Of a stretch of 64,000 bases of DNA, positions 3,507-37,415 are shown one piece after another. How positions within the stretch are numbered: the first letter of the stretch is position 1; each line of letters begins with the position of its first letter. Made by a program: the position numbers and the translations under genes. This DNA comes from Patescibacteria group bacterium (GTDB taxonomy: Bacteria; Patescibacteriota; Minisyncoccia; Phycocordibacterales; Phycocordibacteraceae). Below the pieces are notes generated by a model, which worked only from the letters and a program-made list of their open reading frames with translations, was not told where the DNA came from and searched no databases. The stretch lies in contig JBBTSV010000005.1 in NCBI GenBank assembly GCA_038064595.1, positions 612 to 64,611 on the forward strand, in the 5' to 3' direction.

Positions 3507-5057
3507 ATGAATAGCATCATCGAACGTATTGAAAAAGAGATCGCCGCATGGGCACCCGAGGTGGGTGCTGAAGAGGTGGGTGTCGTGCGCGCTACCGGCG
3601 ACGGGATCGCTGAAATCGACGGGCTCGAGAAGGCAGTCCTTTCTGAGATGGTCCTCTTTGATCCCACGTTTGATCGCACGCTTACCGAGGCGCTCGCAGA
3701 CCCCAACCCAATCTATGGACTCATTTTGAATCTTGAAGAGGACGGCGTCCGTGCGGTCATTCTGGGCGATGCGTCCAAGATCTATGAGGGGATGCTCGTG
3801 CGTCGCCTCAACCGCCTCCTCTCAATCTCGGTCGGTCCCGAGCTTGTGGGACGCGTGGTGAACCCTCTCGGCGAGCCCGTCGACGGGAAAGGCCCGACGA
3901 AGGCGAAGGAGGAGCGGCCGATCGAGCGCGAGGCGTATGGCGTGATCGATCGTGCTCCGGTGAATGTCCCACTCCATACGGGTATCAAGGCGGTGGACGC
4001 GATGATCCCGATCGGTCGTGGTCAGCGTGAGCTCATCATTGGTGATCGCGGTACCGGCAAGACCACCATCGCGATCGACACCATTATCAATCAGAAGAGT
4101 GAGTCGGCCACTACGCGTCCTATCTGTATCTATGTCGCGATCGGTCAGAAAGAGAGCAAAACCGCCAAACTCGTGGCCGAGCTCGCCGCCCGCGGCGCGA
4201 TGGAGTACAGCATTGTAGTAACTGCTCCTGCATCTAGTCCTGCTGCCTTGCAGTTCCTTGCGCCGTTTGCGGGCGCGACCATCGGTGAATATTTTATGGA
4301 GCAAGGGAAGGACGCGCTCGTCGTCTACGACGACCTCTCTAAGCAGGCCGTTGCCTATCGTCAGCTGGCGCTCCTCTTGCGTCGCCCGCCGGGCCGCGAG
4401 GCATACCCGGGTGACATCTTCTACCTCCACTCACGCCTCCTCGAGCGTGCCGCCAAGCTTTCCAAGGAGAAAGGGGGAGGTTCTTTGACTGCGCTCCCGA
4501 TTATCGAGACGCAGGAGGGCGATGTCTCGGCGTACATCCCAACCAACGTGATCTCGATCACCGACGGACAAATTTACCTCGAGACGAACCTCTTCAATAA
4601 AGGGCAGCGTCCTGCCATCAATGTTGGTATTTCTGTTTCGCGCGTGGGAAGCTCGGCACAGACGAAGGCGATGAAGAAGGTCGCCGGCAAGATTAAGCTC
4701 GAGCTCGCTCAGTTTCGAGAACTGGAAGCCTTCATGCAGTTCTCTTCTGACTTGGATCCTGAAACCAAGAAGCGCATCGATGCTGGGCGTCGCATGACCG
4801 AGATTCTCAACCAGGGACGCGGTGTTCCGCTCCCCTTTGAAATGGAGGCAGCGATTATCTTTACTGCAACCAGCGGGTACCTGAATTCTTTTGCACCAGA
4901 AGAGATTAAGGAGGTTGAGGAGAAGCTTCGCGACTACCTCTACCGCGAGGCCGGCGGCGTCCTCGCCGCGATCAAAGAATCTCGTGAGATTCGTGAAGAG
5001 ACCGAGAAAACACTTCGCGAGAAGCTCGACGCCTTTGTCGCGCAGCATAAAAACTAG
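3507..5057 (+). CDS. atpA: F0F1 ATP synthase subunit alpha
   Basis: 516 aa; Walker A GDRGTGKT, typical alpha subunit sequence. Confidence 0.95.
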
Positions 5058-5080: not shown

Positions 5081-7388
<2,308 letters not shown>

Positions 7389-26735: not shown

Positions 26736-27989
26736 ATGAAATTCACTGAAGACTTGGCGGGCCGCGGGCTCTTGGAGCACACCTCAACGGCGCCCGAGCA
26801 TATCTTCTCTAAGCCGCGCACGGTCTACCTGGGCGTCGACCCCACCGCCGACTCGCTCCACGTGGGCCACCTGGTACCCATCCTCCTTATGAAGCGGCTT
26901 GCCGCGGCAGGGAACAAGCTCATCTTCTTGGTCGGTGGCGGGACCGGTATGATCGGTGATCCGCGCGAGCAGGGCGAGCGCGTGATGCTCGACGAGAAGG
27001 CGGTGGCCGCCAACACGCGTGCGCTAAAGAGCCAGCTCAAGCGCATCCTCGGCTCGGTGTCTTTCAAGATGGTGGACAACGCTGACTGGCTTCTCGACAT
27101 TAAGCTCGTGCCGTTTCTGCGTGGCATCGGGAAGTTCTTCACGGTCAATGACCTGGTCAAACGCGAGATCATCAAGAAGCGTCTCGACACCCCCGACGAG
27201 AGCATCTCCTATACCGAGTTTACGTACGCACTCCTCCAAGGCTATGACTACTTTGTCCTTAATCAGAAATATGGTTGTGATCTGCAGGTGGGCGCGAGTG
27301 ATCAGTGGACCAATATCCTCTCGGGAGTCGACCTGATCCACAAGAAGCTGGGAGAAGATGTCTATGCCTGCACCGTGCCGCTCATCACCGACGCCTCGGG
27401 CAAGAAGTTCGGCAAGAGCGAGGGCAATGCCGTGTGGCTCGACCCAGCTAAGACCTCACCCTTCCAGTTCTACCAGTTCTGGATCAATCTCCCCGATGAA
27501 AACCTCGAGCAGTACCTCAAGGTCTACACCTTTCTCCCGCTTCAAGAGATCGCTGCGCTCCTCGAGCTGCATAAGCGGAGCCCGGGCGAGCGCCAAGCAC
27601 AGGAGACGCTGGCGCGTCTCGTGACCGAGATCGTGCACGGCCCGGCCGCGGTGGCGCAGGCAGCGGCCGCCACCGACGCGCTCTTTGGCGACACCCCCTT
27701 CCACGAGCTCTCACGCGAGGCGTTCCAGGTGGCGCTTGCCGAGGCGCCAAGCGTGACCCTCACCAAGCGCGACGTTGAAGATGGCGCCTCGCTCTGTGAG
27801 GCGCTCGTCGCGGGCGGCCTCGCGAGCTCCAAGAGTGATGCTCGCCGCCTGATAGAAGGGAAGGCGATCACCCTCTCGGGCCTCCCGATAGAGAATCCGG
27901 ATCAGAAAATATTTGTGAGTGACCTCTCCGGCGGCCACGCCCTCATCCGCAAGGGCAAGCAGGGCGTCCTCGTTTTAGTACTAAAGTAA
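26736..27989 (+). CDS. tyrS: Tyrosyl-tRNA synthetase
   Basis: HVGH (HIGH) and KFGKS (KMSKS) motifs; C-terminal S4 domain; ATG follows TGTGGTATAAT. Confidence 0.92.
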   Translation: MKFTEDLAGRGLLEHTSTAPEHIFSKPRTVYLGVDPTADSLHVGHLVPILLMKRLAAAGNKLIFLVGGGTGMIGDPREQGERVMLDEKAVAANTRALKSQLKRILGSVSFKMVDNADWLLDIKLVPFLRGIGKFFTVNDLVKREIIKKRLDTPDESISYTEFTYALLQGYDYFVLNQKYGCDLQVGASDQWTNILSGVDLIHKKLGEDVYACTVPLITDASGKKFGKSEGNAVWLDPAKTSPFQFYQFWINLPDENLEQYLKVYTFLPLQEIAALLELHKRSPGERQAQETLARLVTEIVHGPAAVAQAAAATDALFGDTPFHELSREAFQVALAEAPSVTLTKRDVEDGASLCEALVAGGLASSKSDARRLIEGKAITLSGLPIENPDQKIFVSDLSGGHALIRKGKQGVLVLVLK

Positions 27990-28043
27990 ACATTTCTGTG
28001 CATAAGTCCGTTTGACTCTCAATTTTCTTGAGAGAATGGCGGT

Positions 28044-28670
28044 ATGCCCTTCCCGGCAGCACTTTCATCAGAAGGTCAGAAGGAGGCCGCTCGGCTCTAC
28101 AGCTGCGGCCTTAGTGCGCAGCAGGTAGCAGATACGCTCAAGGTCAGTCTCAATGCGACCTACTACGCGCTGCGTCATCTGAAGGTTCAGCGGCGCACGG
28201 CGAAGCAGACAAATCAAATTCGCTTTGAGGCAAAACCGCTTTCATATAGTCTAAAAACCTCTCTCACGGAGAAGGACGAACGTTTGAAGGCCGCCGCAAT
28301 CATGCTGTACTGGGCAGAAGGGTATAAGGTCGGGCGAAACACAGTAGATTTTGCAAATTCTGATGCGCAAATGGCCCTGATCTTTAAGCGATTTCTTTCA
28401 GAAATTTGCCGGGTCGATGAAAGACGGATCCGAGGACATATTTATTGCTATGAAGGTCAGAATGTGGCTGAGCTGACTCGATACTGGAGTCGTCTCCTTT
28501 CAATACCTGAAAAGCAATTTATTAAACCCTATATAAAGAAGGCAGCTGAACCAGGGCCGCGAGGTCCGAGGATGCTTCACGGTCTTGTACATATAGTGTA
28601 TTCTGATCAGAAGTTGTTGAGGCAAATACTCGCATGGATAGAGGAGTATCATAAGGACTTGACAAAATGA
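28044..28670 (+). CDS. HTH DNA-binding domain fused to a LAGLIDADG-like homing-endonuclease-like domain
   Basis: N-terminal ARLYSCGLSAQQVADTLKVSLNATYYALRH (HTH); then LYWAEGYK...NSDAQMALIFKRFLSEI resembling a single LAGLIDADG motif; stop is 1 nt before tRNA-Tyr. Confidence 0.45.
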   Translation: MPFPAALSSEGQKEAARLYSCGLSAQQVADTLKVSLNATYYALRHLKVQRRTAKQTNQIRFEAKPLSYSLKTSLTEKDERLKAAAIMLYWAEGYKVGRNTVDFANSDAQMALIFKRFLSEICRVDERRIRGHIYCYEGQNVAELTRYWSRLLSIPEKQFIKPYIKKAAEPGPRGPRMLHGLVHIVYSDQKLLRQILAWIEEYHKDLTK

Positions 28671-28754
28671 GCGTCGGTGGCGGAGTGGTCAATCGCACGA
28701 GACTGTAAATCTCGCGGACATAGTCCTACGAAGGTTCGAATCCTTCCCGGCGCA
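28671..28754 (+). tRNA. tRNA-Tyr (anticodon GTA), class II long variable arm
   Basis: Acceptor gcgtcgg/ccggcgc (one G:U); anticodon stem cgaga/tctcg with loop ctGTAaa; T-arm gaagg-ttcgaat-ccttc. Confidence 0.75.
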
Positions 28755-28811
28755 CAGAGCGAAAAGAGAAATCCCCGTAAGGGGATTTCTCTTTTCGGGT
28801 ATACTGGTGCG

Positions 28812-30128
28812 ATGCACTGGCGCGGAACTATTGTAATACGGTCAGTCATCGTCGGCGCGCTCACGGCGCTCCTCGTGATCGGCTTTCTCTCAGCCCAGAA
28901 GTCCCCGATCAGCTATGCTACCCCCGAGGAGGCTGACCCCTATGTGCGCTTTGCGATGGAGGCATTTGACCAGATCAGCGAGAAGTACTGGATTAAGCCG
29001 GGCTCCTTTGCACAGTTTAACTCTCCCGAGTTGCCGCAACTCTTTCAGCTCGCGCTCGCTAAAGGGGGCGTGAGCGCGACTCTGGCCACCTCCACCCGCG
29101 CAGGCACCGCCGCGCTTATCGCCGATGCGCTCAAGAATGCGACCTCAACCGAGGTTAAGAAGAAGCTCGTCACTGACACCGTGAGTCTCGTGCTCTACAA
29201 CCTCATCCCCTATGGGCGTAACGCCCTCTACTCCGAGCAACAGGTCACCCAGTTGCGCAACGAGGTGGCGAACGTAAACCCCGAGAAAGATTTGTATAAA
29301 AACTTGGGCGTTGAGAAAGGAGCCTCCGAGACTGAGATCCAGAAAGCCTATACCGAGAAGGCTGCCACACTCGCCGCGTCGAGCTCGAGCGCGGCGAAGG
29401 AGGAGCTGAAGGCAGTGGACTATGCGCACAAGGTCTTGAGCAGTGCGCCGCAGAAGCAGCTCTATGACACGGCGCAGGTTGAGCCGAGCGTCTTCTCGCA
29501 TACGCTCGGCCGCACGCTCTACGTAAGCTTTAATAAAATCTCGCCCACGACGCTGCAGGAATTTGGCTGGGCGGTGCTCGCCGCCTCGACCACTCCCGGG
29601 CTCGACTCGCTTATTCTCGACATGCGGGGCAACGTAGGTGGCTCACTCGACTTTGCCCCTGCATTTGTCGGCCTCTTTATCGGTGCTAATCAGTATGCGT
29701 TTGACCTTTATCATCAGGGCGAGAACGATCCACAGCGCACTACCCTCGGTCAGTTCCCCGAGCTCTCCCGCTACCGCGAGGTGGCGGTCCTCACCGATCC
29801 GATGACCCAGTCGACCGCCGAGACCACCACCGCGGTGCTCAAGCGCCTCCGGCTCGCGCATGTGGTGGGGGAGCGCACTCGTGGCTGGGGCTCGGTTGAG
29901 AATACGTATCCCCTTAAAACTGAAATTGACCCTGCGACTACCTACGCGCTCTTCTTGGTCAACTCACTCACGCTGCGCGACGACCAACAGCCGATTGAAC
30001 AGAATGGTGTGTTACCCGACGTCGACACGAGTGCGAGCGGCTGGCAGCGCAAGCTTTCAAATTATTTCTCCTCGCCGTCTCTTATAAGCGCGCTCACCGC
30101 GCGCGCCGCCGCCCCGCCACTTCGGTAA
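28812..30128 (+). CDS. S41-family C-terminal processing peptidase-like protein with N-terminal membrane anchor
   Basis: LDMRGNVGGS and AVLTDPMTQSTAETT motifs typical of S41 peptidases; ATG follows GGTATACTGG. Confidence 0.6.
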   Translation: MHWRGTIVIRSVIVGALTALLVIGFLSAQKSPISYATPEEADPYVRFAMEAFDQISEKYWIKPGSFAQFNSPELPQLFQLALAKGGVSATLATSTRAGTAALIADALKNATSTEVKKKLVTDTVSLVLYNLIPYGRNALYSEQQVTQLRNEVANVNPEKDLYKNLGVEKGASETEIQKAYTEKAATLAASSSSAAKEELKAVDYAHKVLSSAPQKQLYDTAQVEPSVFSHTLGRTLYVSFNKISPTTLQEFGWAVLAASTTPGLDSLILDMRGNVGGSLDFAPAFVGLFIGANQYAFDLYHQGENDPQRTTLGQFPELSRYREVAVLTDPMTQSTAETTTAVLKRLRLAHVVGERTRGWGSVENTYPLKTEIDPATTYALFLVNSLTLRDDQQPIEQNGVLPDVDTSASGWQRKLSNYFSSPSLISALTARAAAPPLR

Positions 30129-30136
30129 AACAAACA

Positions 30137-30164
30137 GCCGCCCGACCCGTAAAGGGTGGGCGGC
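30137..30164. terminator. Bidirectional terminator hairpin
   Basis: gccgcccgacccgtaaagggtgggcggc. Confidence 0.5.
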
Positions 30165-30191
30165 CATTCTCTCCGCGGCTTCGCCGCGGAG

Positions 30192-30899
30192 TCAGAGCGG
30201 GAAGATTCTCGGGAAGGATGTCAGCTTGACCTTCCCGTCGACGACGTCGAACTCGAACCATGCCATGTCCCCCTTCGCGAAGAGCTCGAAGTTGAGCTGT
30301 CCGAGCCCGACGAACGAGGAGAGCGCTGCTTCGCAGAGCGGACTGTGGGTGACGAGGAGTGCTGCCTCACCCGGCCCGATCACGCCTGTCACCACGGTGT
30401 GGATCACGCCAGCCATTTGCAAGCCGCAGTTTGCGAAGAGTTGTGGGTCGGCCTTGGCGAGCGCCTGGGGTGTCATGCTCTCGCATTTCGCGATGCGCTT
30501 CCATATCTCGGCGTTCTCGTAATCGGGCGGCGTGAGCCCGATCAACTGTTCCATCGAGTTGGGTGGGCTGGGGAGACACACTCCGGCAGTCTGGAGCGTG
30601 CGCAGTGCGGCCGAGTAGCCGCAATACGCAAAGTCCATCCCGGTCAGGAATGCCCGGATCCGCTCTGCATGCGGCAGAGCCTCCGACCAGTCGAGAGGAT
30701 CGTTCATCCCCCAGTCTGTCGGAGGGCGGTCGAGATGTGTCATCTGCCGCAAGTGCCGCATGAGACACACCGTCCGCACCACCGGGTTAAGTGGCGGCCT
30801 GTTCAGATACATCGAGATCTCCTTGGGGTTGAGAACCCGGCCTACGGCCGGGGGTAAAAGGGTCAAATTCCCGTGCTGACAATAGAGTATTAACGACAT
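30192..30899 (-). CDS. Hypothetical protein, possibly histidine-phosphatase superfamily
   Basis: 235-aa ORF; C-terminal ALLVTHSPLCEAAL resembles the phosphatase VTHG region; the overlapping + ORF 30156..30857 is R/H/C-rich antisense. Confidence 0.4.
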   Translation of the reverse strand: MSLILYCQHGNLTLLPPAVGRVLNPKEISMYLNRPPLNPVVRTVCLMRHLRQMTHLDRPPTDWGMNDPLDWSEALPHAERIRAFLTGMDFAYCGYSAALRTLQTAGVCLPSPPNSMEQLIGLTPPDYENAEIWKRIAKCESMTPQALAKADPQLFANCGLQMAGVIHTVVTGVIGPGEAALLVTHSPLCEAALSSFVGLGQLNFELFAKGDMAWFEFDVVDGKVKLTSFPRIFPL

Positions 30900-30982
30900 C
30901 CTGTCAAATCGCTTGGGAGAGGTAATAGAAGTGTGGATGCAGCGGCATGAGGGTATACAGCCGCATGAACGAATTTCTCAAG

Positions 30983-31231
30983 ATGGATATCTTTTTCTTC
31001 GTCACCACTGTGATTGCAGTTATCTTTGGCGTTCTGGGTGCCTACGTTCTCTGGCGGGTGGGGCGGATCCTCACGCATATCGAGCATATTTCTGAAGCGG
31101 TGGTAATGGAGAGCGCGCTGGTGCGGCAAGATCTAGCAGAGCTGCGAGAGAATATACGGGGTGGGGGAGGCCGCATCCGACCATTCTTTAGCTTCTTCAA
31201 GAAGTGGGCGCTGCGTAATAAGAAGAAATAG
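30983..31231 (+). CDS. Small membrane protein (one TM helix)
   Basis: MDIFFFVTTVIAVIFGVLGAYVLW then charged tail; start uncertain (30947/30965/30983). Confidence 0.4.
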   Translation: MDIFFFVTTVIAVIFGVLGAYVLWRVGRILTHIEHISEAVVMESALVRQDLAELRENIRGGGGRIRPFFSFFKKWALRNKKK

Positions 31232-31254
31232 CTTACCCATTTACCTACACCACC

Positions 31255-31620
31255 ATGGCTACTCACACCGGACTCAAGGTCAAGACAGGCGTCGCGCTCG
31301 GGCTCGCGGCAGCCGCAGCCGCAGGCTACTACTTTTACGGCAGCGACAAGGCCAAGCAGCACCGCAAGATCGCTACGCGCTGGGCGGCCGATATGAAAGA
31401 TGATGTGATGAGTAAAGCCGCGCAGCTCAAAGAGATGAGCGCGAAGGACTTTGCCACCATCGTCGACACTGTCTCGGCCACCTACGCGGGTGCCCGCGCC
31501 ATCGACGCGAGCGACCTCAAGCGTGCCGCGCAGGAGCTCAAGGATAACTGGAAGGAGGTCCAGAAGGAGCTCGTCACTAAGGCCTCCAAGGCGGCCGCCA
31601 AAGCCCGCAAAGCGGGCTAG
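31255..31620 (+). CDS. Hypothetical protein (121 aa), N-terminal hydrophobic segment then Ala/Lys-rich helix
   Basis: Clean ORF ending in hairpin gcccgc-aaa-gcgggc and T-run. Confidence 0.55.
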   Translation: MATHTGLKVKTGVALGLAAAAAAGYYFYGSDKAKQHRKIATRWAADMKDDVMSKAAQLKEMSAKDFATIVDTVSATYAGARAIDASDLKRAAQELKDNWKEVQKELVTKASKAAAKARKAG

Positions 31621-31647
31621 TCTCGCGGGCTCTCGTTTTTTTGTTGA

Positions 31648-31689
31648 AATATTCTTATCACTCGACGGTCGGCCATACATAAGGATATT
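31648..31689. repeat. Second copy of AT-rich hairpin AAATATTCTTATCACT...ATAAGGATATT (see 8852-8892)
   Basis: Shares 16-mer with 8851-8866; stem retained with a compensated loop. Confidence 0.55.
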
Positions 31690-31780
31690 TGATCGGTGAC
31701 CGACCATACACAATCATGACGCTATAGCGTGAAGATTAGGTATACCCGCCGCGGAAGTTTAACTTCCGCAGCACCCTTAT

Positions 31781-31843
31781 CCGCCAGCTTTTGAAATAAG
31801 CGCAGTAGCGGCGATTGACTTTTAGCATGGATAGCGCTATCCT
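31781..31843 (+). promoter_or_regulatory. Promoter-like module CCGCCAGCTTTTGAAATAAG-N14-TTGACT-N17-TATCCT
   Basis: Same 20-nt AT-rich element plus N14 plus TTGACW recurs at 32589-32628. Confidence 0.45.
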
Positions 31844-31847
31844 GAGG

Positions 31848-31906
31848 GCATAACCATAGAGAAAACCCTGTTGCATATCCGTATGCAATGGGGGTTTCTC
31901 TTTTTA
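31848..31906 (+). ncRNA. Candidate ~55-nt sRNA ending in a nested terminator hairpin plus T5
   Basis: Hairpin gagaaaaccc ... ggggtttctc enclosing ttgcata-tccg-tatgcaa, followed by ttttt; 3' end overlaps the NYN gene stop on the opposite strand. Confidence 0.3.
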
Positions 31907-32422
31907 GGGCGACGCTCTTTCAGAAAACTTGTGGTACAGATCGTTGAGGAAGACTAGGTCTGTATTTTTATTGCGAAGCAGAAATGAGCACTTTTGTTTA
32001 TTCGGAGCGATTACGCTATGCATCGCCTTATGCTCGACAAGGAATTCGACGAGGCAGCCAAAGTCGCCGTCACCGGTGACCAATACGCACTGGTCGTACT
32101 CTTTTTCATAAAACTGTGACGTTGCTTTAAGCACCAGCTCGGCGTCGCAGTTACCCTTGACCTCTCCATCTACCGAGATTGTTTGCTTGAAGATAAGAAT
32201 GAAGCCGCACTGCTGCAAATGCTCATACAGCTTCGTTTTGCCGGGAATAAGACCGATGAAGAGATAGACATTGGTCGGGTTGTACTTTTGGCGTAGCCAC
32301 CCACGGAACTTTTTGTAGTCGATACGGAACCCGAGCTCGGCAGAGGCGCGATGCAGATTTGCGCTGTCGATATAGACGTTGATGCGAGCGGCGTCCATGC
32401 CGTAAGCATAGCAGATCACCAC
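31904..32422 (-). CDS. NYN-domain (LabA/PIN-like) ribonuclease family protein
   Basis: INVYIDSANL ... GNCDAELVLKA ... VLVTGDGDF match the NYN acidic motifs; likely start at MDAAR (32398). Confidence 0.7.
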   Translation of the reverse strand: MVICYAYGMDAARINVYIDSANLHRASAELGFRIDYKKFRGWLRQKYNPTNVYLFIGLIPGKTKLYEHLQQCGFILIFKQTISVDGEVKGNCDAELVLKATSQFYEKEYDQCVLVTGDGDFGCLVEFLVEHKAMHSVIAPNKQKCSFLLRNKNTDLVFLNDLYHKFSERASP

Positions 32423-32425
32423 GTT

Positions 32426-32501
32426 CCCCTAGGACCGTCCTAGGGGGATCATCCACGGTGAGACTATCCGCAAGGTGTCACCTCGAGGTGACACCTTGCG
32501 G
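32426..32501. promoter_or_regulatory. Operator-like palindromes: 21-bp (cccctaggac c gtcctagggg) and a perfect 34-bp palindrome (ccgcaaggtgtcacctc|gaggtgacaccttgcgg)
   Basis: Located between divergent NYN gene and the 32702 gene. Confidence 0.55.
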
Positions 32502-32588
32502 AATAAATATACAGATCGGATTCGGTAGGGGAGGTGCTGGGGATGCTCAAGGCAGCATCGCCGAGGGCCGGACCGCCGCGATCCTCTT

Positions 32589-32651
32589 CCGCCACCTTTT
32601 GAAATAAACTTAGTTAGGCTGTTTGACAGTACATACGCAATGTGCTATAAA
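32589..32651 (+). promoter_or_regulatory. Promoter CCGCCACCTTTTGAAATAAA-N14-TTGACA-17-TATAAA
   Basis: Canonical -35/-10 with upstream AT-rich UP-like element; ~45-nt leader with AGGAGA SD before ATG 32702. Confidence 0.55.
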
Positions 32652-32701
32652 AGAATTAGACGGAATTGGTCCGTCGTATCGAATCTACACAGGAGAGTTT
32701 G

Positions 32702-33334
32702 ATGTCCCATAGCAACGCAAGAACTGGTGCCAGTGTTCCGCTTCTCACGCAAAAGCTGGCGCAGACTGGCCTCTACGAGTTACTGAATCTCGACGGCGGG
32801 TTCACAGACAAGAAGCTGTACTGGAGCCAACGTGATTGCAACGAGTGTGTTCTCGAGGAGCATCCGTTCGGGCTTGATACGTCCACGGGCTCGGAAACGC
32901 AATTGGATCATGGGGTCCGACTCATCGCATGCGATGGCGGCACCGACACTTCGGTCAAGGCGATGAAGCTCATGCTCGGCCATCATGCCGCGGTCCATCC
33001 CGTCAGCGGCCGCTTAGACTTCCGTCTGCGGATCATCCGCATCCGGAAAGCCGCAGAACATTGGGAGCGCCCGGGGCAATTCATCCACGACCTGTACTTC
33101 GAGCTGATCACCTGCGTCGGGAGCTTCATGTGCGGTGGCGTCAACGACCATACCGGCGAAGGCGGGTACGGCGGAGAGCAGTTGGAGGCAATCTTCCGCT
33201 TCATCGCCGCTCTCTACGACAAGCCGCTCGAAGAAGTCGTGATCCCCCAGGCCGACGCCGAGCCAGCACGGCGGAAGCTATCCGCCGCATACGGCAAGTT
33301 TGTCGAGCGGAAGAGGAGTGCGGTGGAAGCGTGA
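32702..33334 (+). CDS. Hypothetical Cys/His-rich protein (210 aa), unknown family
   Basis: Own promoter and terminator; CNEC, IACDGG, CVGSFMCGG clusters; CTG/CCG/CGG codon bias unlike core genes. Confidence 0.5.
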   Translation: MSHSNARTGASVPLLTQKLAQTGLYELLNLDGGFTDKKLYWSQRDCNECVLEEHPFGLDTSTGSETQLDHGVRLIACDGGTDTSVKAMKLMLGHHAAVHPVSGRLDFRLRIIRIRKAAEHWERPGQFIHDLYFELITCVGSFMCGGVNDHTGEGGYGGEQLEAIFRFIAALYDKPLEEVVIPQADAEPARRKLSAAYGKFVERKRSAVEA

Positions 33335-33354
33335 CCTGGGCAGTACCTTCACGA

Positions 33355-33394
33355 AGGCCCACGATTAGGCTCATAGCCAGATCGTGGGCCTTTT
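33355..33394 (+). terminator. Rho-independent terminator
   Basis: aaggcccacgat...atcgtgggcctttt. Confidence 0.55.
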
Positions 33395-33443
33395 CGTTTC
33401 CTATGACGAAGGGGTTGTGGGACGAAATGATATACTGGGGACC

Positions 33444-34265
33444 ATGACGGTCGCCGAGAGAAAAATCCTTTCTGTAGTCGCCCAAAAACCTTATTTCTTG
33501 AAGGACAACTTCGTTCTATATCACGGAGACTCAATAAACGTTCTCGCGCAGCTGCCCGAGAATTCGATCGACATGATCTTCGCCGATCCGCCGTACAATC
33601 TCTCCAATGGCGGCTTCACGGTGCACGCCGGACGCATGGTGAGCGTCAACAAAGGTGTCTGGGACATTAGCAAAGGATTTGAAGACGATTACGCCTTCCA
33701 CTATCGTTGGCTTGAGGCCTGCAAGCGCGTTTTGAAGCCTGAGGGCACACTCTGGGTGAGCGGCACCTATCACTCTATCTATCAGTGCGGTCATGCACTC
33801 CAATCCCTCGGCTACCATATCCTCAACGACATTTCATGGTTCAAGCCGAATGCCTCGCCAAACTTGAGCTGCCGATTCTTCACCGCGAGCCACGAGACAA
33901 TCGTCTGGGCGCGCAAAGATAAGAAGGCAAAACATACTTTCAATTATGAGCTAATGAAAGAAGGGAACTGGCCCGAGGATCAGTTGAAGAAGCCGGGACT
34001 CCAGATGCGCTCCGTATGGTCCATGGGCACCCCTCGCCCGGAGGAGAAGAAATACGGCAAGCATCCCACCCAGAAGCCGCTCGACCTGCTCAAGCGCATA
34101 GTGCTTTCGAGCACCAACAAAGGTAACGTCGTCCTCGACCCATTTACAGGCAGCTCCACGACGGGCATCGCCGCCGCTCTAAATGGGCGTAAATTCATCG
34201 GCATAGACATGGAAAAGAAGTACCTTGATCTTTCAATAAAAAGATTTAATGATCTTCGTGTATGA
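33444..34265 (+). CDS. Beta-class (DPPY then FxGxG) DNA N6-adenine/N4-cytosine methyltransferase
   Basis: IFADPPYNL motif IV upstream of DPFTGSSTTG motif I; ATG follows GATATACTGG; stop overlaps next gene. Confidence 0.85.
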   Translation: MTVAERKILSVVAQKPYFLKDNFVLYHGDSINVLAQLPENSIDMIFADPPYNLSNGGFTVHAGRMVSVNKGVWDISKGFEDDYAFHYRWLEACKRVLKPEGTLWVSGTYHSIYQCGHALQSLGYHILNDISWFKPNASPNLSCRFFTASHETIVWARKDKKAKHTFNYELMKEGNWPEDQLKKPGLQMRSVWSMGTPRPEEKKYGKHPTQKPLDLLKRIVLSSTNKGNVVLDPFTGSSTTGIAAALNGRKFIGIDMEKKYLDLSIKRFNDLRV

Positions 34266-34882
34266 AAATTGTTACGCGTACTATAGCAATAAGAAATTTG
34301 AAGAAATACATCGGGAAAGATTTGCGTCCACTCGCACTCAAGCATGGCATAACTACCTACGAGACCGGAAAGCAAAACAAAGGTTGGAAAGGTTTAGTTT
34401 TAGGACCATTGGCAGGTCTAACGAATAATAATTTGAAGGCCCCAAATGGCTTAGGTTTTGAGTTAAAGTCAGTTGCTTTCCATAAAGTAAAGGGCGAGCT
34501 CGTACCCAAGGAAACAATGGCGATCACAATGATCAACCCCAATGAGCTGCGGAAACACACATTCTATAAGAGCCACTGTTGGGAGAAACTGAAAGGCTTA
34601 GTTTTCTGTGCGGTTGAGTGGAGTGGCAAAAACTCTGGGGAAGCGAGGTTGCTCAAAGTGGCGAGCTTGGATTTTGCTGAAGATGACAAGCTTATAAAAG
34701 AGGTTAAGGCAGATTACGATCTCATTCGTAAAAAGCTAATTGCGGAAGGTTTCGACGCCTTGACGGGCAAGGACGGTAAATGGATACAAGCTCGAACCAA
34801 AGGATCCGGGCACGGTTCCACTAGCCGTGCATTCTATGCACGTACCTCATTCGTAAAGAAAATTTTCGAAACAGCAAGTTGA
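34262..34882 (+). CDS. MutH/Sau3AI-family type II restriction endonuclease (GATC-family fold)
   Basis: NKGWKG, GLGFELKSV and AFYARTSFVKKIF parallel E. coli MutH DKGWVG, ALGVELKTIP, RGFYLKKNFT. Confidence 0.7.
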   Translation: MKIVTRTIAIRNLKKYIGKDLRPLALKHGITTYETGKQNKGWKGLVLGPLAGLTNNNLKAPNGLGFELKSVAFHKVKGELVPKETMAITMINPNELRKHTFYKSHCWEKLKGLVFCAVEWSGKNSGEARLLKVASLDFAEDDKLIKEVKADYDLIRKKLIAEGFDALTGKDGKWIQARTKGSGHGSTSRAFYARTSFVKKIFETAS

Positions 34883-34889
34883 AGTCAAT

Positions 34890-35504
34890 ATGGAACTCCT
34901 TTACATAACTTTAGGATGGTTGTTTGGCTTACTCACGCCTCCCATTTCTTCTAGAATAGACAGAAAATATAAAGAAAAAGACTTTAGATTTGCAATATGT
35001 TCGGAGCTCAAAAATCTTGCTACTAGGATCGCGGGGCTTTCCTTTAAAGTCCATCTTCATTTGGGGAGTTTAGACAAACCATCATTAAGGTGGATTGGGG
35101 ATGTCTATAAAAAGTACAATGATGGCATGGTAACACCTGAAATGGAAAAAATATTCGGAGCGTCAGATGCAGATTTTAAAACGGTAATGGAGAAATATAA
35201 AGCATCTGAAAACAGATCGCTTGCTATCAAGACTTTCTCACTCCCAGTTATGGACTCTTTGTTGGGAGACATATGGGTTTTTGATTCACAATTTCAACGA
35301 GAAATCTTGGAATTGAGAAGTCAGGTGGATATTTTAAATCAAGAAATTGAAAATTGCATGCAATACTTTTTTCTAACTTTTGACCCTAGTACAATGAGTG
35401 CAAATGCGACTGTTTTAAATACGAATCTAAAAGAGAGTCACGGACTCATTGCAGACAGATGTAAAATTGTAGTGAGTAAAATTGACGTGATTATTGATAA
35501 ATAA
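34890..35504 (+). CDS. Hypothetical protein, very AT-rich gene, N-terminal TM helix
   Basis: 204-aa ORF; clearly AT-rich by eye in a higher-GC genome. Confidence 0.5.
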   Translation: MELLYITLGWLFGLLTPPISSRIDRKYKEKDFRFAICSELKNLATRIAGLSFKVHLHLGSLDKPSLRWIGDVYKKYNDGMVTPEMEKIFGASDADFKTVMEKYKASENRSLAIKTFSLPVMDSLLGDIWVFDSQFQREILELRSQVDILNQEIENCMQYFFLTFDPSTMSANATVLNTNLKESHGLIADRCKIVVSKIDVIIDK

Positions 35505-35532
35505 CACTTCGTTTTGTGGTATCGTACAGAGC

Positions 35533-35628
35533 ATGAATACAGGAGGAGAAGATGGGGGAGGGAAACCGGTGCTGGTGTCGGGGGTGAAGCCGACGGGGGA
35601 GCTGCATATCGGGAAGGGTGTATTATAA
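35533..35628 (+). pseudogene. Duplicated trpS promoter plus first 27 codons, running into an early stop (31-aa remnant)
   Basis: ~97 bp at ~35512-35608 is ~96% identical to 36417-36514 (the trpS start); reads MNTGGEDGGGKPVLVSGVKPTGELHIGKGVL*. Confidence 0.6.
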
Positions 35629-35633
35629 AGCGA

Positions 35634-36278
35634 GTGAAAACATTATTTGTTGACGAATCGGGCAATCTTGGGACAAAAGATCGATACTTTGTGCTCGTTC
35701 TATTTGCTCCTCAACGGAGCAAGCGCGTAGTGAATTTTATGAGGAAGTTCTGTGCCACAAATAAGCTGTCTGAAGTGAAGGCGAGCAGACTGTCTTTCCC
35801 TCAAAAGCAAGAGATTTTTAATAAACTCTGCAGTGCCAATGACTATACGATTTCATACATCGTCGCGGATAAGCAGAATATTGATAATAAGAAATTGTTT
35901 GAGGATAAAAACCTCTGCTACAACTACTTGTTTTCGTTCTTGGTGAAAAAGACCATAAAAAGTTCCCCGGAAGATCTGTCCATTCTGCTTGATAATCACT
36001 CGACTAAGGTCGGTTCTATTAACTCTCTTTCTGACTACATTAAGATAAAAGCGTTTACGCAGTTTGGCTACCAGCATAACCTGCAAATTGCGTACACAAA
36101 CTCGGAACATTCCAAGGTGGTGCAGGCGGTTGATGTGATTGCGAATGCAATTTGGGCGCATTACAACTATGGTGCGAGCCATTTCTATAACATGCTGACG
36201 ATCAGTGAATCGATTCGATTTCCGCAGAACAAATTTGGACAAAATCTCGTTATCCCCACGGCTCCTATCTCACCTTGA
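35634..36278 (+). CDS. DUF3800-like protein
   Basis: GTG start; KTLFVDESGNLG N-terminus typical of DUF3800; AT-rich gene; ORF-track entry 35514 is an out-of-frame read through the trpS repeat. Confidence 0.55.
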   Translation: MKTLFVDESGNLGTKDRYFVLVLFAPQRSKRVVNFMRKFCATNKLSEVKASRLSFPQKQEIFNKLCSANDYTISYIVADKQNIDNKKLFEDKNLCYNYLFSFLVKKTIKSSPEDLSILLDNHSTKVGSINSLSDYIKIKAFTQFGYQHNLQIAYTNSEHSKVVQAVDVIANAIWAHYNYGASHFYNMLTISESIRFPQNKFGQNLVIPTAPISP

Positions 36279-36377
36279 TTTTATCTGCAATTTCATATAC
36301 TATTAACTTGATGTAAATCCGGTGTGGAGCTTATAGCAAGTAAGTGGCGTATTCCGTCACCGAAACACTGGTAATCT

Positions 36378-36402
36378 AGAAAAGCCCTGCGGGGCTTTTC
36401 TG
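36378..36402 (+). terminator. Rho-independent terminator upstream of trpS
   Basis: gaaaagccctgcggggcttttctgcttt. Confidence 0.55.
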
Positions 36403-36437
36403 CTTTCTAGGTTAATTTTTGTGGTATCGTACAGAGC

Positions 36438-37415
36438 ATGAATACAGGAGGAGACAATGGGGGAGGGAAGCCGGTGCTGGTGTCGGGGGTCAAGCCGACG
36501 GGGGAGCTGCATATAGGCAACTACTTTGGCGCGATGCGCCAGTTTGTCGAGCTGACCAAGGAGGGCAAGTATCGGCCCTTCGTCTTTGTCGCCGACTATC
36601 ACGCGCTCAACTCGGTGCAGGATCAGGGGGAGATGAAGCGGCGCACCCGAGAGGTGGTGATGGCCTACCTCGCTATCGGGCTCGACCCCGAGCAGGTGAC
36701 GATCTTCAAGCAGTCGGAGGTCCCGGCGCACACCGAGCTCTGCTGGATCTTCGACACCCTCACCACGATGCCGTATCTCATGCGCGCGCACGCCTTCAAG
36801 GATGCCGAGGCCAAGAATAAGGAGATCAATGTCGGGACCTTCAACTACCCGATCCTCATGGCTGCCGATGTCCTCCTCTATGACGCCGCCGTGGTGCCAG
36901 TGGGGCAGGATCAGAAGCAGCATATCGAGATCATGCGCGACATCGCAGAGAAGTTTAACCGGATATATAAAACGGAGGTGTTCAAGCTCCCCGAGCCCAT
37001 GATCGTGCCCGAGGTGGCGGTGGTGCCGGGCACTGATGGCGGCAAGATGAGTAAGAGCGAGGGCAACGTGATCCCCCTCTTCGGCACACGCGACGAGCTC
37101 GCGAAGGCGGTGATGAGTATTGTCACTGACTCTGCTGGCGGCCGGCCGGAGAATGTCTACGCTATCCATAAACTAGTGCGCAGCGAGCAGGAGCTCGAGG
37201 CAGTCTATGCCGAGCACGAAGGGAATTACAAAATGCTCAAAGAAATTTTGATTGAGGATCTCGACCGCGTTCTCGCGCCTATGCGCGCGAAGTATGAGGC
37301 GCTCAAGGAGGACTCGAGAGAGGTGGACGTGATCCTCGGCCGCGGTGGGCAAGTGGCACGTGAGGTGAGCGAGGCCAAGATGGCGCAGGTCCGCGCAGCG
37401 ATCGGGGTTGCATAA
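36438..37415 (+). CDS. trpS: Tryptophanyl-tRNA synthetase
   Basis: GELHIGNYFGA (HIGH) and KMSKS motifs; ATG 7 nt after GTGGTATCGT -10-like motif; alternative GTG start at 36483. Confidence 0.9.
   Translation: MNTGGDNGGGKPVLVSGVKPTGELHIGNYFGAMRQFVELTKEGKYRPFVFVADYHALNSVQDQGEMKRRTREVVMAYLAIGLDPEQVTIFKQSEVPAHTELCWIFDTLTTMPYLMRAHAFKDAEAKNKEINVGTFNYPILMAADVLLYDAAVVPVGQDQKQHIEIMRDIAEKFNRIYKTEVFKLPEPMIVPEVAVVPGTDGGKMSKSEGNVIPLFGTRDELAKAVMSIVTDSAGGRPENVYAIHKLVRSEQELEAVYAEHEGNYKMLKEILIEDLDRVLAPMRAKYEALKEDSREVDVILGRGGQVAREVSEAKMAQVRAAIGVA

Follow-up and report, generated by a model that had tools for sequence, protein, structure and literature searches.

The DNA analysed here is a 64-kb stretch (hereafter the window) of a Patescibacteria genome (Paceibacteria/Kaiserbacteria-like) from Hainich groundwater, in which the promoter and first codons of trpS, the gene for tryptophan-tRNA ligase, occur twice in direct orientation on either side of a short module consisting of a DUF3800 gene and a structured small RNA (Table 1; L-numbers denote related Patescibacteria contigs or loci compared with the window). 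A repeat search returned the two copies as a single family, 104 nt long, 94% identical and with a spacing of 905, and pairwise alignment placed six substitutions between the upstream copy A and the downstream copy B, none of them in the first 42 nt, with similarity dropping sharply at both flanks. Among direct repeats of 35 nt or more, the 64 kb otherwise contained only tRNA paralogues and two weak matches of 38-45 nt, and given that no comparable long repeat outside tRNA genes is present, we do not regard the 104-nt repeat as a chance occurrence. The first-pass annotation of this DNA had described a duplication at the 5' end of trpS and had proposed comparing the window with itself as a check; that comparison recovered a significant repeat and bore the duplication out. 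The coordinates given at the time (35512-35608 and 36417-36514, with about four substitutions) describe its inner 98 nt, which are 96% identical, and fall short of the full repeat with its six differences.

Because the sequence is metagenome-assembled, the repeat might represent a chimeric join of strain variants, and a Logan unitig (L084) indeed breaks 30 nt into copy A. This break is accounted for by a repeat that exceeds k=31. A contig from a different sample (L085) covers positions 34285-36517 at 99.96% with both copies present, and in all four contigs bearing this trpS (4/4) the neighbourhood is the same and the site is occupied. Since the two copies are non-identical and L085 spans both of them, we rejected an assembly artefact, the probability of which we consider practically nil.

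Copy B heads the working gene. The trpS that follows it is intact, and its homologues are 76-84% identical over 97-100% of their length, with alignments that start at residues 6-13; together with the domain match in Table 1, this agrees with the earlier assignment of copy B as the true trpS start. An alternative start at ATG 36457, behind AGGAGG, was ruled out on reading the sequence because it is out of frame. The encoded protein begins with a Gly-rich N-terminal extension, MNTGGDNGGG (36438-36470), which is not found in relatives and, being present in both copies of the repeat, is older than the duplication. Copy A, in contrast to this working copy, is a remnant: its open reading frame (ORF; MNTGGEDGGGKPVLVSGVKPTGELHIGKGVL) passes from trpS into the module and ends in a TAA, 5 nt upstream of the DUF3800 GTG at 35634, that overlaps the -10 box of the module. 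The 31-aa remnant ORF reported previously, ending 5 nt before the DUF3800 start, can thus be read directly from the sequence.

The repeat starts 8 nt upstream of a -10 box, and each copy contains a minimal leaderless trpS promoter, TGGTATCGT, followed by 7 nt, the ATG and 27-28 codons, so that 21 nt upstream of the ATG are common to both. TG-n-TATCGT or a close variant stands 5-9 nt before the ATG, without a Shine-Dalgarno sequence, in most of ~40 related trpS loci, and in this genome tyrS, the DnaJ-S41 gene, the NYN gene, the methyltransferase gene, trpS and scpB each have a TAnnnT box 12-14 nt ahead of the ATG. The earlier claim that the repeat includes the promoter therefore holds, with TATCGT 7 nt before the ATG and a layout kept in most relatives and in six first-in-operon genes. 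Leaderless mRNAs from extended -10 promoters appear, from these motif positions, to be general in this genome and at the trpS of its relatives. A generic sigma-70 and terminator scan gave no enrichment, and such a scan misses extended -10 leaderless promoters. Because the trpS promoter consists of no more than an extended -10 box, separated from the ATG by 7 nt, a duplicate of roughly 100 bp (here 104 bp) suffices to restore both transcription and the N terminus, which makes an insertion at this position viable.

The DUF3800 gene is the sole protein gene between the repeats, and the module further contains its own -10 box upstream of that gene, a second -10 box, the structured small RNA and an intrinsic terminator. 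Similarity to 35 other DUF3800 loci extends, whatever their neighbours, from the -10 box, ~20 nt 5' of the start codon, to about 10 nt past the terminator, and the non-coding 3' part is better conserved than the DUF3800 gene itself. Judged by these alignments, the module is a discrete, self-contained unit delimited to the base. Its -10 box is kept as TATTAT or TACTAT, 5-9 nt before the start codon, in other DUF3800 loci; the start codon itself is GTG in the window and ATG in every other locus inspected. We found 185 DUF3800 homologues at E<=1e-5, with identities of 64-100% among the 120 matches listed; Liptonbacteria and Sungbacteria are among the named sources, and short contigs hold many of the sequences. 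Contigs of 905 bp carrying such homologues, a length equal to the repeat spacing, turned out to be a coincidence, for they are non-circular and hold the gene at varying offsets. A scan of viral contigs for further module copies returned only two distant relatives.

Besides the Pfam family (PF12686), the DUF3800 protein matched the PADLOC candidate PDC-M04A (1e-5) and phrog_9243, and none of the Pfam, PADLOC and PHROGs matches gave it a recognised transposase identity. An AlphaFold 2 model (mean predicted local distance difference test score, pLDDT, 85.5) had RNase HII and RNase HI as its top Foldseek matches in the PDB, the best being 1eke (E 3.6e-6, template modelling score ~0.5). Residues D7-E8-S9-G10, D79, D120, H122 and D167 are invariant, with D-E-S-G on the first strand. 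The protein is thus predicted to have an RNase HII-like fold with conserved acidic residues. An RNase H-type fold has been published for DUF3800, and the published model notes a rearranged catalytic site (PMC10910872).

The small RNA is predicted to form a three-way junction in which P1 pairs 36319-36325 with 36365-36371, accompanied by P2 and P3. In an alignment of 19 loci, 97.5% of the cells were paired, as opposed to 42-49% when the partners were slid; compensatory changes occurred in 14/27 pairs, and 0/500 shuffles reached the observed values. The G-U pairs assign the structure to the sense strand. A search with a covariance model located the RNA directly 3' of the DUF3800 gene in ~30 of the DUF3800 loci searched and did not find it in ~20 trpS-only loci or in the rest of the window; five extra low-scoring matches (21-26 bits) fell within or beside those same DUF3800 sites. 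There was no Rfam match, even at E<=10 on 146 nt, for the window and 12 other loci. Eleven unrelated RNA motifs (DUF3800-I to -XI) are known to accompany DUF3800 genes (Weinberg et al. 2017, PMC5737381). Compared against Rfam, which holds at least motifs I and IX, the small RNA of the window looks like an undescribed DUF3800-associated motif.

Table 1. Features of the trpS locus and of the related loci discussed in the text.
Contig	Feature	Coordinates	Strand	Remarks
Window	Copy A of the repeat	35512-35615	+	Remnant copy; trpS promoter (-10 TATCGT, 35520-35525), ATG 35533, 27-28 trpS codons
Window	Copy B of the repeat	36417-36520	+	Working trpS promoter (-10 at 36425-36430) and 5' coding region
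Window	Remnant ORF	35533-35628	+	31 codons: trpS codons 1-28, 3 module codons, TAA
Window	trpS	36438-37415	+	Tryptophan-tRNA ligase, 325 aa, intact; Pfam tRNA-synt_1b 1.8e-63
Window	Inserted DUF3800-small RNA module	35616-36416	+	801 bp; GC content ~40% vs ~60% in the host
Window	Module -10 box TATTAT	35621-35626	+	7 nt before GTG; leaderless layout
Window	DUF3800 gene	35634-36278	+	214 aa, GTG start; Pfam DUF3800 9e-12
Window	Small RNA gene	36296-36405	+	-10 TATACT 36296-36301; predicted three-way junction; terminator 36378-36401, then T run
Window	tRNA-Tyr	28671-28755	+	ARAGORN; left edge of variable hot spot
Window	Type II DNA methyltransferase, CcrM-like N6/N4 MTase	33444-34265	+	Pfam N6_N4_Mtase 1.2e-59; PADLOC MTase_II 5e-98
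Window	Type II restriction endonuclease, MutH/Sau3AI-like	34262-34882	+	Pfam MutH 4.3e-10; NCBIfam restrict_Sau3AI 6e-14; low GC
Window	orf204	34890-35504	+	Low GC; stop 7 nt upstream of copy A
Window	First-in-operon starts with TAnnnT box, no Shine-Dalgarno	26736, 28812, 32398(-), 33444, 36438, 41345		
L086, L092, L112, others	Recombinase examples beside module	L086 4429-6000; L092 2394-3935; L112 4432-5979		
L081	trpS promoter and ~45 codons, duplicated	3996-4125/9939-10076		Around 5.8-kb island: NUDIX, YcaO, hydrolase, C39 peptidase
L032	Promoter and 13 codons of another gene, duplicated	594-654/4362-4421		Around 3.7-kb radical-SAM island
L029	murG coding segment, duplicated	16845-16903/18334-18392		Around trypsin-like peptidase gene
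L086	Nramp 3' end, duplicated	923-976/1790-1843		Around single methyltransferase gene

Copy A could in principle have been kept for what it does, driving transcription and coupled translation of DUF3800, a proposal that concerns function and not origin. It retains the full promoter and start with its first 42 nt unchanged, no terminator separates it from DUF3800, the remnant ORF stops just short of the DUF3800 start, and with a GTG there instead of the ATG used elsewhere, extra upstream drive could matter. Against this, the module has an intact -10 box of its own, in the position that it occupies at loci lacking a trpS fragment, so that DUF3800 does not need the promoter of copy A; the position of the remnant follows from the geometry of insertion; and a mutation-free stretch of 42 nt, given six differences, has by our own arithmetic a chance of ~0.045, which is weak evidence. 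We consider such adaptive capture decidedly unlikely. The first-pass suggestion that DUF3800 had captured the trpS promoter is unnecessary, given a TATTAT box 7 nt before the start that is conserved in other DUF3800 loci. Since no terminator intervenes, read-through from copy A is possible, and copy A could at most add such transcription, in a supplementary role.

For the origin of the arrangement, we favour, with moderate confidence, a recombinational gain in which the mobile module of ~0.8 kb entered trpS at its 5' end, most readily by a Campbell-type crossover, with the repeat as its scar. The module would have come from a closely related donor, already joined to that donor's trpS promoter and first ~28 codons as a second copy with ~6% divergence, and a single crossover within the trpS homology would have integrated the circularised DNA of ~0.9 kb; a variant would be homology-anchored illegitimate recombination. 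Either way, copy B would come to head an intact trpS, and copy A would be left upstream as a 31-codon remnant running into the module. The repeats might afterwards permit excision and, speculatively, reintegration in relatives by homologous recombination. In Escherichia coli, recircularised fragments that integrate by a single crossover produce duplications of the homologous segment of 109-950 bp around the insert (PMC3240628), and displaced gene arrays at type VI secretion system loci of Vibrio have been proposed to arise by homology-anchored insertion (PMC5361080). In the window, a repeat of host-like GC content flanks a compositionally foreign insert (~40% vs ~60% GC). The intact 325-aa trpS with its -10 box 7 nt before the ATG supports the earlier reading of an insertion that regenerates the 5' end of its target. 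The accompanying suggestion of sequential insertions or a recombination-mediated cassette gain pointed in the right direction and missed part of the cargo, which comprises, beyond DUF3800, a structured small RNA with promoter and terminator.

Duplicated gene ends also flank unrelated cargo. Self-comparison of 1.44 Mb of Patescibacteria DNA yielded four related cases (L081, L032, L029 and L086; Table 1), in which the bracketing repeats, 54-138 bp long, are made of gene starts or ends, and no recombinase was detected by Pfam in the inserts. In L081, the trpS remnant directly follows tRNA-Trp and is already frameshifted. Because the cargo of these repeat-flanked inserts is unrelated, the duplication is not tied to DUF3800. 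A "repeat" near trpS in L018 was rejected as a trpS duplication, as it is a hairpin element, AAGGTGACTCC...AGGTGTCTCCTT, that stands upstream of two different promoters (2290-2350 and 6800-6862). In L062, a direct repeat of a gene start or end (1400-1503/2831-2934) brackets a RhuM/Fic gene, again with no recombinase present.

The differences between the copies bear on whether the second trpS start came from elsewhere or was copied in place. Codon differences at duplicated 5' ends were mostly silent: 4 synonymous and 2 non-synonymous in the window (trpS), 8 and 1 in L081 (trpS), 4 and 0 in L032, and 2 and 0 in L029 (murG). The duplicated 3' ends gave 0 synonymous and 4 non-synonymous in L091 (GIY-YIG) and 0 and 5 in L086 (Nramp). 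In the window, third codon positions hold 5/6 changes and both non-synonymous differences fall in the Gly-rich N-terminal extension; in L081, the synonymous differences include Ser AGT/TCG and Arg CGC/AGG. With the four 5' cases pooled, 18/21 differing codons were synonymous (P 6e-8 against an expectation of 28%, 7e-4 against 50% and 0.011 against 60%), where by our own estimate an in-place copy with a neutrally decaying remnant would yield ~40-50%. Copies so rich in synonymous differences resemble a pair of alleles, each of which evolved in a functional gene before the two were joined. This pattern suggests that the 5' duplicates are functional donor and resident alleles brought together by recombination, not copied in place, and the 3'-end cases may have a different history or may reflect unconstrained C termini.

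A long target-site duplication intrinsic to the mechanism of insertion, with staggered breaks or template switching copying the 104 bp in place and the remnant drifting thereafter, is quite unlikely; the pooled 5' cases are far too synonymous for neutral decay. In its strongest form, the DUF3800 RNase H-fold protein and the RNA would mobilise the module themselves. Two independent insertions of the same module do have duplications that abut both its ends, 104 bp at trpS and 65-67 bp in L091, where the module has entered a GIY-YIG gene three codons ahead of the stop and the 3' end of this gene is duplicated; by this layout L091 is a second, independent case of a repeat-bracketed module. There the duplication rescues nothing, since the gene is complete in the upstream copy and the downstream copy is a useless remnant, which gives the duplication the look of a mechanistic by-product. 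Duplications of 54-59 bp around single genes occur in L086 and L029 as well, and the RNase H-type fold is that of DDE transposases and RuvC-like recombinases (PMC10910872). Weighing on the other side, repeat length is not fixed (54-138 bp) and no terminal inverted repeats pair the module ends in the window or L091, a combination that argues against a classical transposon; the other repeat-flanked cargo is unrelated (methyltransferase, trypsin-like peptidase, radical SAM, YcaO); ~33/35 other module copies have no flanking repeat; and it is RNase HII, not a transposase, that the fold matches. A long shot within this line of thought is that the DUF3800 protein and the small RNA form an autonomous, integrase-independent cassette, in which the RNA or nuclease would help to target insertion and duplications of 50-140 bp would be inherent. 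If that were true, the long-unexplained DUF3800-RNA pairs (the 11 motifs and this one) would be a new class of RNA-assisted mobile element.

Elsewhere the module keeps different company, and from this distribution it relocates between genomes and sites. None of the 80 trpS loci has DUF3800 (0/80) and none of the 35 other DUF3800 loci has trpS (0/35). In 16 loci (~8 distinct sequences) the module has as its neighbour a gene for a large serine recombinase (513 aa; domains Resolvase, Recombinase and Zn_ribbon) that is divergently oriented and starts ~20 nt away. The far, 3' end of the recombinase gene overlaps a tRNA gene, tRNA-Thr in L086 and tRNA-Glu in L094, an overlap that points to islands integrated at tRNAs, with the module on their integrase side. 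The recombinase-linked loci (L086 ~6780-6850, L092 ~4735-4810, L094, L097 and L112) share a further conserved stretch 3' of the module, a hairpin GCTTCGC...GCGAAG followed by GTGCGCGC..GGGTGGGAGGG..GGCAAGCAC, which could be another RNA or an attachment site. In L116, the module adjoins a peptidase_S49 gene and belongs to an island of 9.2 kb that has 87-bp repeats at its boundaries, beside a tRNA.

These associations raise the alternative of site-specific integration, in which the repeats would be attL and attR of a small integrase-less element bearing a mimic of the trpS 5' end and served by a recombinase in trans; such an element could be cis-mobilisable, like a cis-mobilisable element (CIME), or the stump of a larger island. 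Prophages and integrative elements are classically flanked by direct repeats derived from the end of a gene that itself stays intact, as with e14 and phage 21 in icd and the streptococcal integrative mobilisable elements (IMEs) in gene 5' ends. The place of the module at the integrase-proximal edge of tRNA-integrated islands and the repeat-bounded island of L116 are in keeping with this explanation, and a mimic borne by the element would likewise give synonymous-biased divergence. Yet Pfam detected no recombinase domain among the large ORFs between tRNA-Tyr and trpS (ORFs of 94, 121 and 46 aa lay outside the scan); the recombinases beside the module elsewhere are of the large serine type, and such enzymes act at short cores and are not known to generate repeats of 100 bp. 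In L091, moreover, the module is flanked by a wholly different target repeat, trpS is not a recurrent site by the counts given above, and the inner boundary of the repeat differs between the two trpS cases (~codon 28 in the window, ~codon 45 in L081). We regard site-specific integration as unlikely.

Several observations weigh against recombinational gain. The donor configuration, with the module directly upstream of trpS and no copy A, was not found among the sparsely sampled 80 trpS and 35 DUF3800 loci, nor was an empty site of the same species found by exact-protein look-ups and a search of 5.8 billion proteins, in which the nearest trpS was 84% identical. Both DUF3800 insertions carry exactly the module, unlike a random fragment, which hints at defined ends. 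The window's own codon pattern (4 vs 2) is by itself suggestive at most, and the window and L091 together give 4 synonymous against 6 non-synonymous differences. Finally, the nearest relative of each copy is the other copy in the same genome, as copying in place would give. Polarising the six substitutions with outgroups gave no result, because the relatives are too distant and third positions are saturated; at least one apparently derived state was seen in each copy. With neither integrase nor empty site nor donor configuration found, we infer the exact mechanism of the favoured recombinational gain, including its donor, its circular intermediate and the sequence of events; the repeat, the module with its limits, the promoters as conserved motifs, the RNA structure and the silent-site pattern of the analogous cases are shown directly.

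The insertion lies at the right end of a variable region. The gene order in relatives is tyrS, tRNA-Tyr, trpS, lysS and pepA; in L003 and L016, the trpS promoter follows tRNA-Tyr within ~12-30 nt with no insert, and in other relatives the gap is 0.3-4 kb. Comparison with related genomes, which had been proposed as a way to find the empty site, thus yielded an insert-free layout in L003 and L016 and none in the same species. From gene order, the L003/L016 layout of tyrS - tRNA-Tyr - trpS is the ancestral arrangement and the tRNA-Tyr to trpS interval (28756-36416) is a variable hot spot for foreign DNA. In the window this gap is 7.7 kb and contains the DnaJ-S41 gene, the NYN nuclease gene, the restriction-modification pair, orf204, copy A and DUF3800. 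GC falls from ~60% to 35-46% across 34150-36400, and both repeat copies keep a host-like composition. None of the island genes of the window was found at the tRNA-Tyr-trpS site of related genomes (80 trpS loci), and no copy of the tRNA-Tyr 3' end, the classic att repeat, was found within the island.

The methyltransferase gene is the first of the restriction-modification pair upstream of copy A and has a leaderless -10 box at -13. Within 33444-34882, it has ~52% GC and the overlapping endonuclease gene ~43%, though the two form one operon. The product of orf204 had no match in Pfam, PADLOC, NCBIfam or PHROGs. A 45-nt direct repeat (31775-31819/32583-32627), 73% identical and with its copies 808 nt apart, brackets the low-GC NYN gene; since both copies hold a TTGAC -35-like element, the repeat may reflect a promoter region present twice rather than a duplicated target. 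NYN-domain genes, 45% identical, lie near the DUF3800 module in both the window (31904-32398, -) and L091 (120-590, -). Aminoacyl-tRNA synthetase genes stand beside cognate tRNAs both at tyrS/tRNA-Tyr (window 26736-28755) and at tRNA-Trp/trpS remnant (L081 3861-3934). The trpS-lysS and ftsW-murG gaps are also variable among relatives (L002-L034).

An insertion that leaves its target whole by means of a duplicated gene end is of a known kind. Here it occurs with no integrase found, in a lineage with minimal promoters, and with a precisely delimited DUF3800-small RNA module, and this module and its movement offer a lead on the unexplained association of DUF3800 with RNAs. Together with L081, L032 and L029, the locus suggests that the starts of essential genes can serve Patescibacteria as sites of gene gain. 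The silent-site pattern of the duplicates provides a simple test, applicable genome-wide, that discriminates allele-carrying recombination from copying in place.

With regard to its parts, the locus resembles known systems and departs from them. The DUF3800 protein shares its predicted fold with RNase HII (class II RNase H, PDB 1eke), and the D-E-A-G catalytic motif of RNase HII resembles the N-terminal D-E-S-G of DUF3800, but the proteins are just 16-17% identical and DUF3800 has no membership of that family at the sequence level. Like the DUF3800 RNA motifs already described, the small RNA is a structured RNA beside a DUF3800 gene, followed by an intrinsic terminator and with UAA triplets in single-stranded parts; it differs from them as a compact three-way junction with no Rfam match, found here only in Patescibacteria metagenome contigs.

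As a whole, the arrangement shares with e14, phage 21, IMEs, integrative conjugative elements and CIMEs the direct repeats of a gene end, the functional gene, the displaced remnant and the mainly silent differences. It differs from these in that no integrase was found near the insert of the window, trpS is not a recurrent target and L091 has another target repeat. With Campbell-type integration and homology-facilitated illegitimate recombination (HFIR), it has in common foreign DNA flanked by a duplicated homologous segment, with no need for an enzyme encoded by the element. Classical HFIR usually produces an insertion accompanied by a deletion and not a duplication (PMC3240628). Relative to Campbell-type integration, for which donor, circle and crossover are presumed here, the distinguishing trait of the window is that the homologous segment consists of a promoter and a gene start, so that the essential gene survives.

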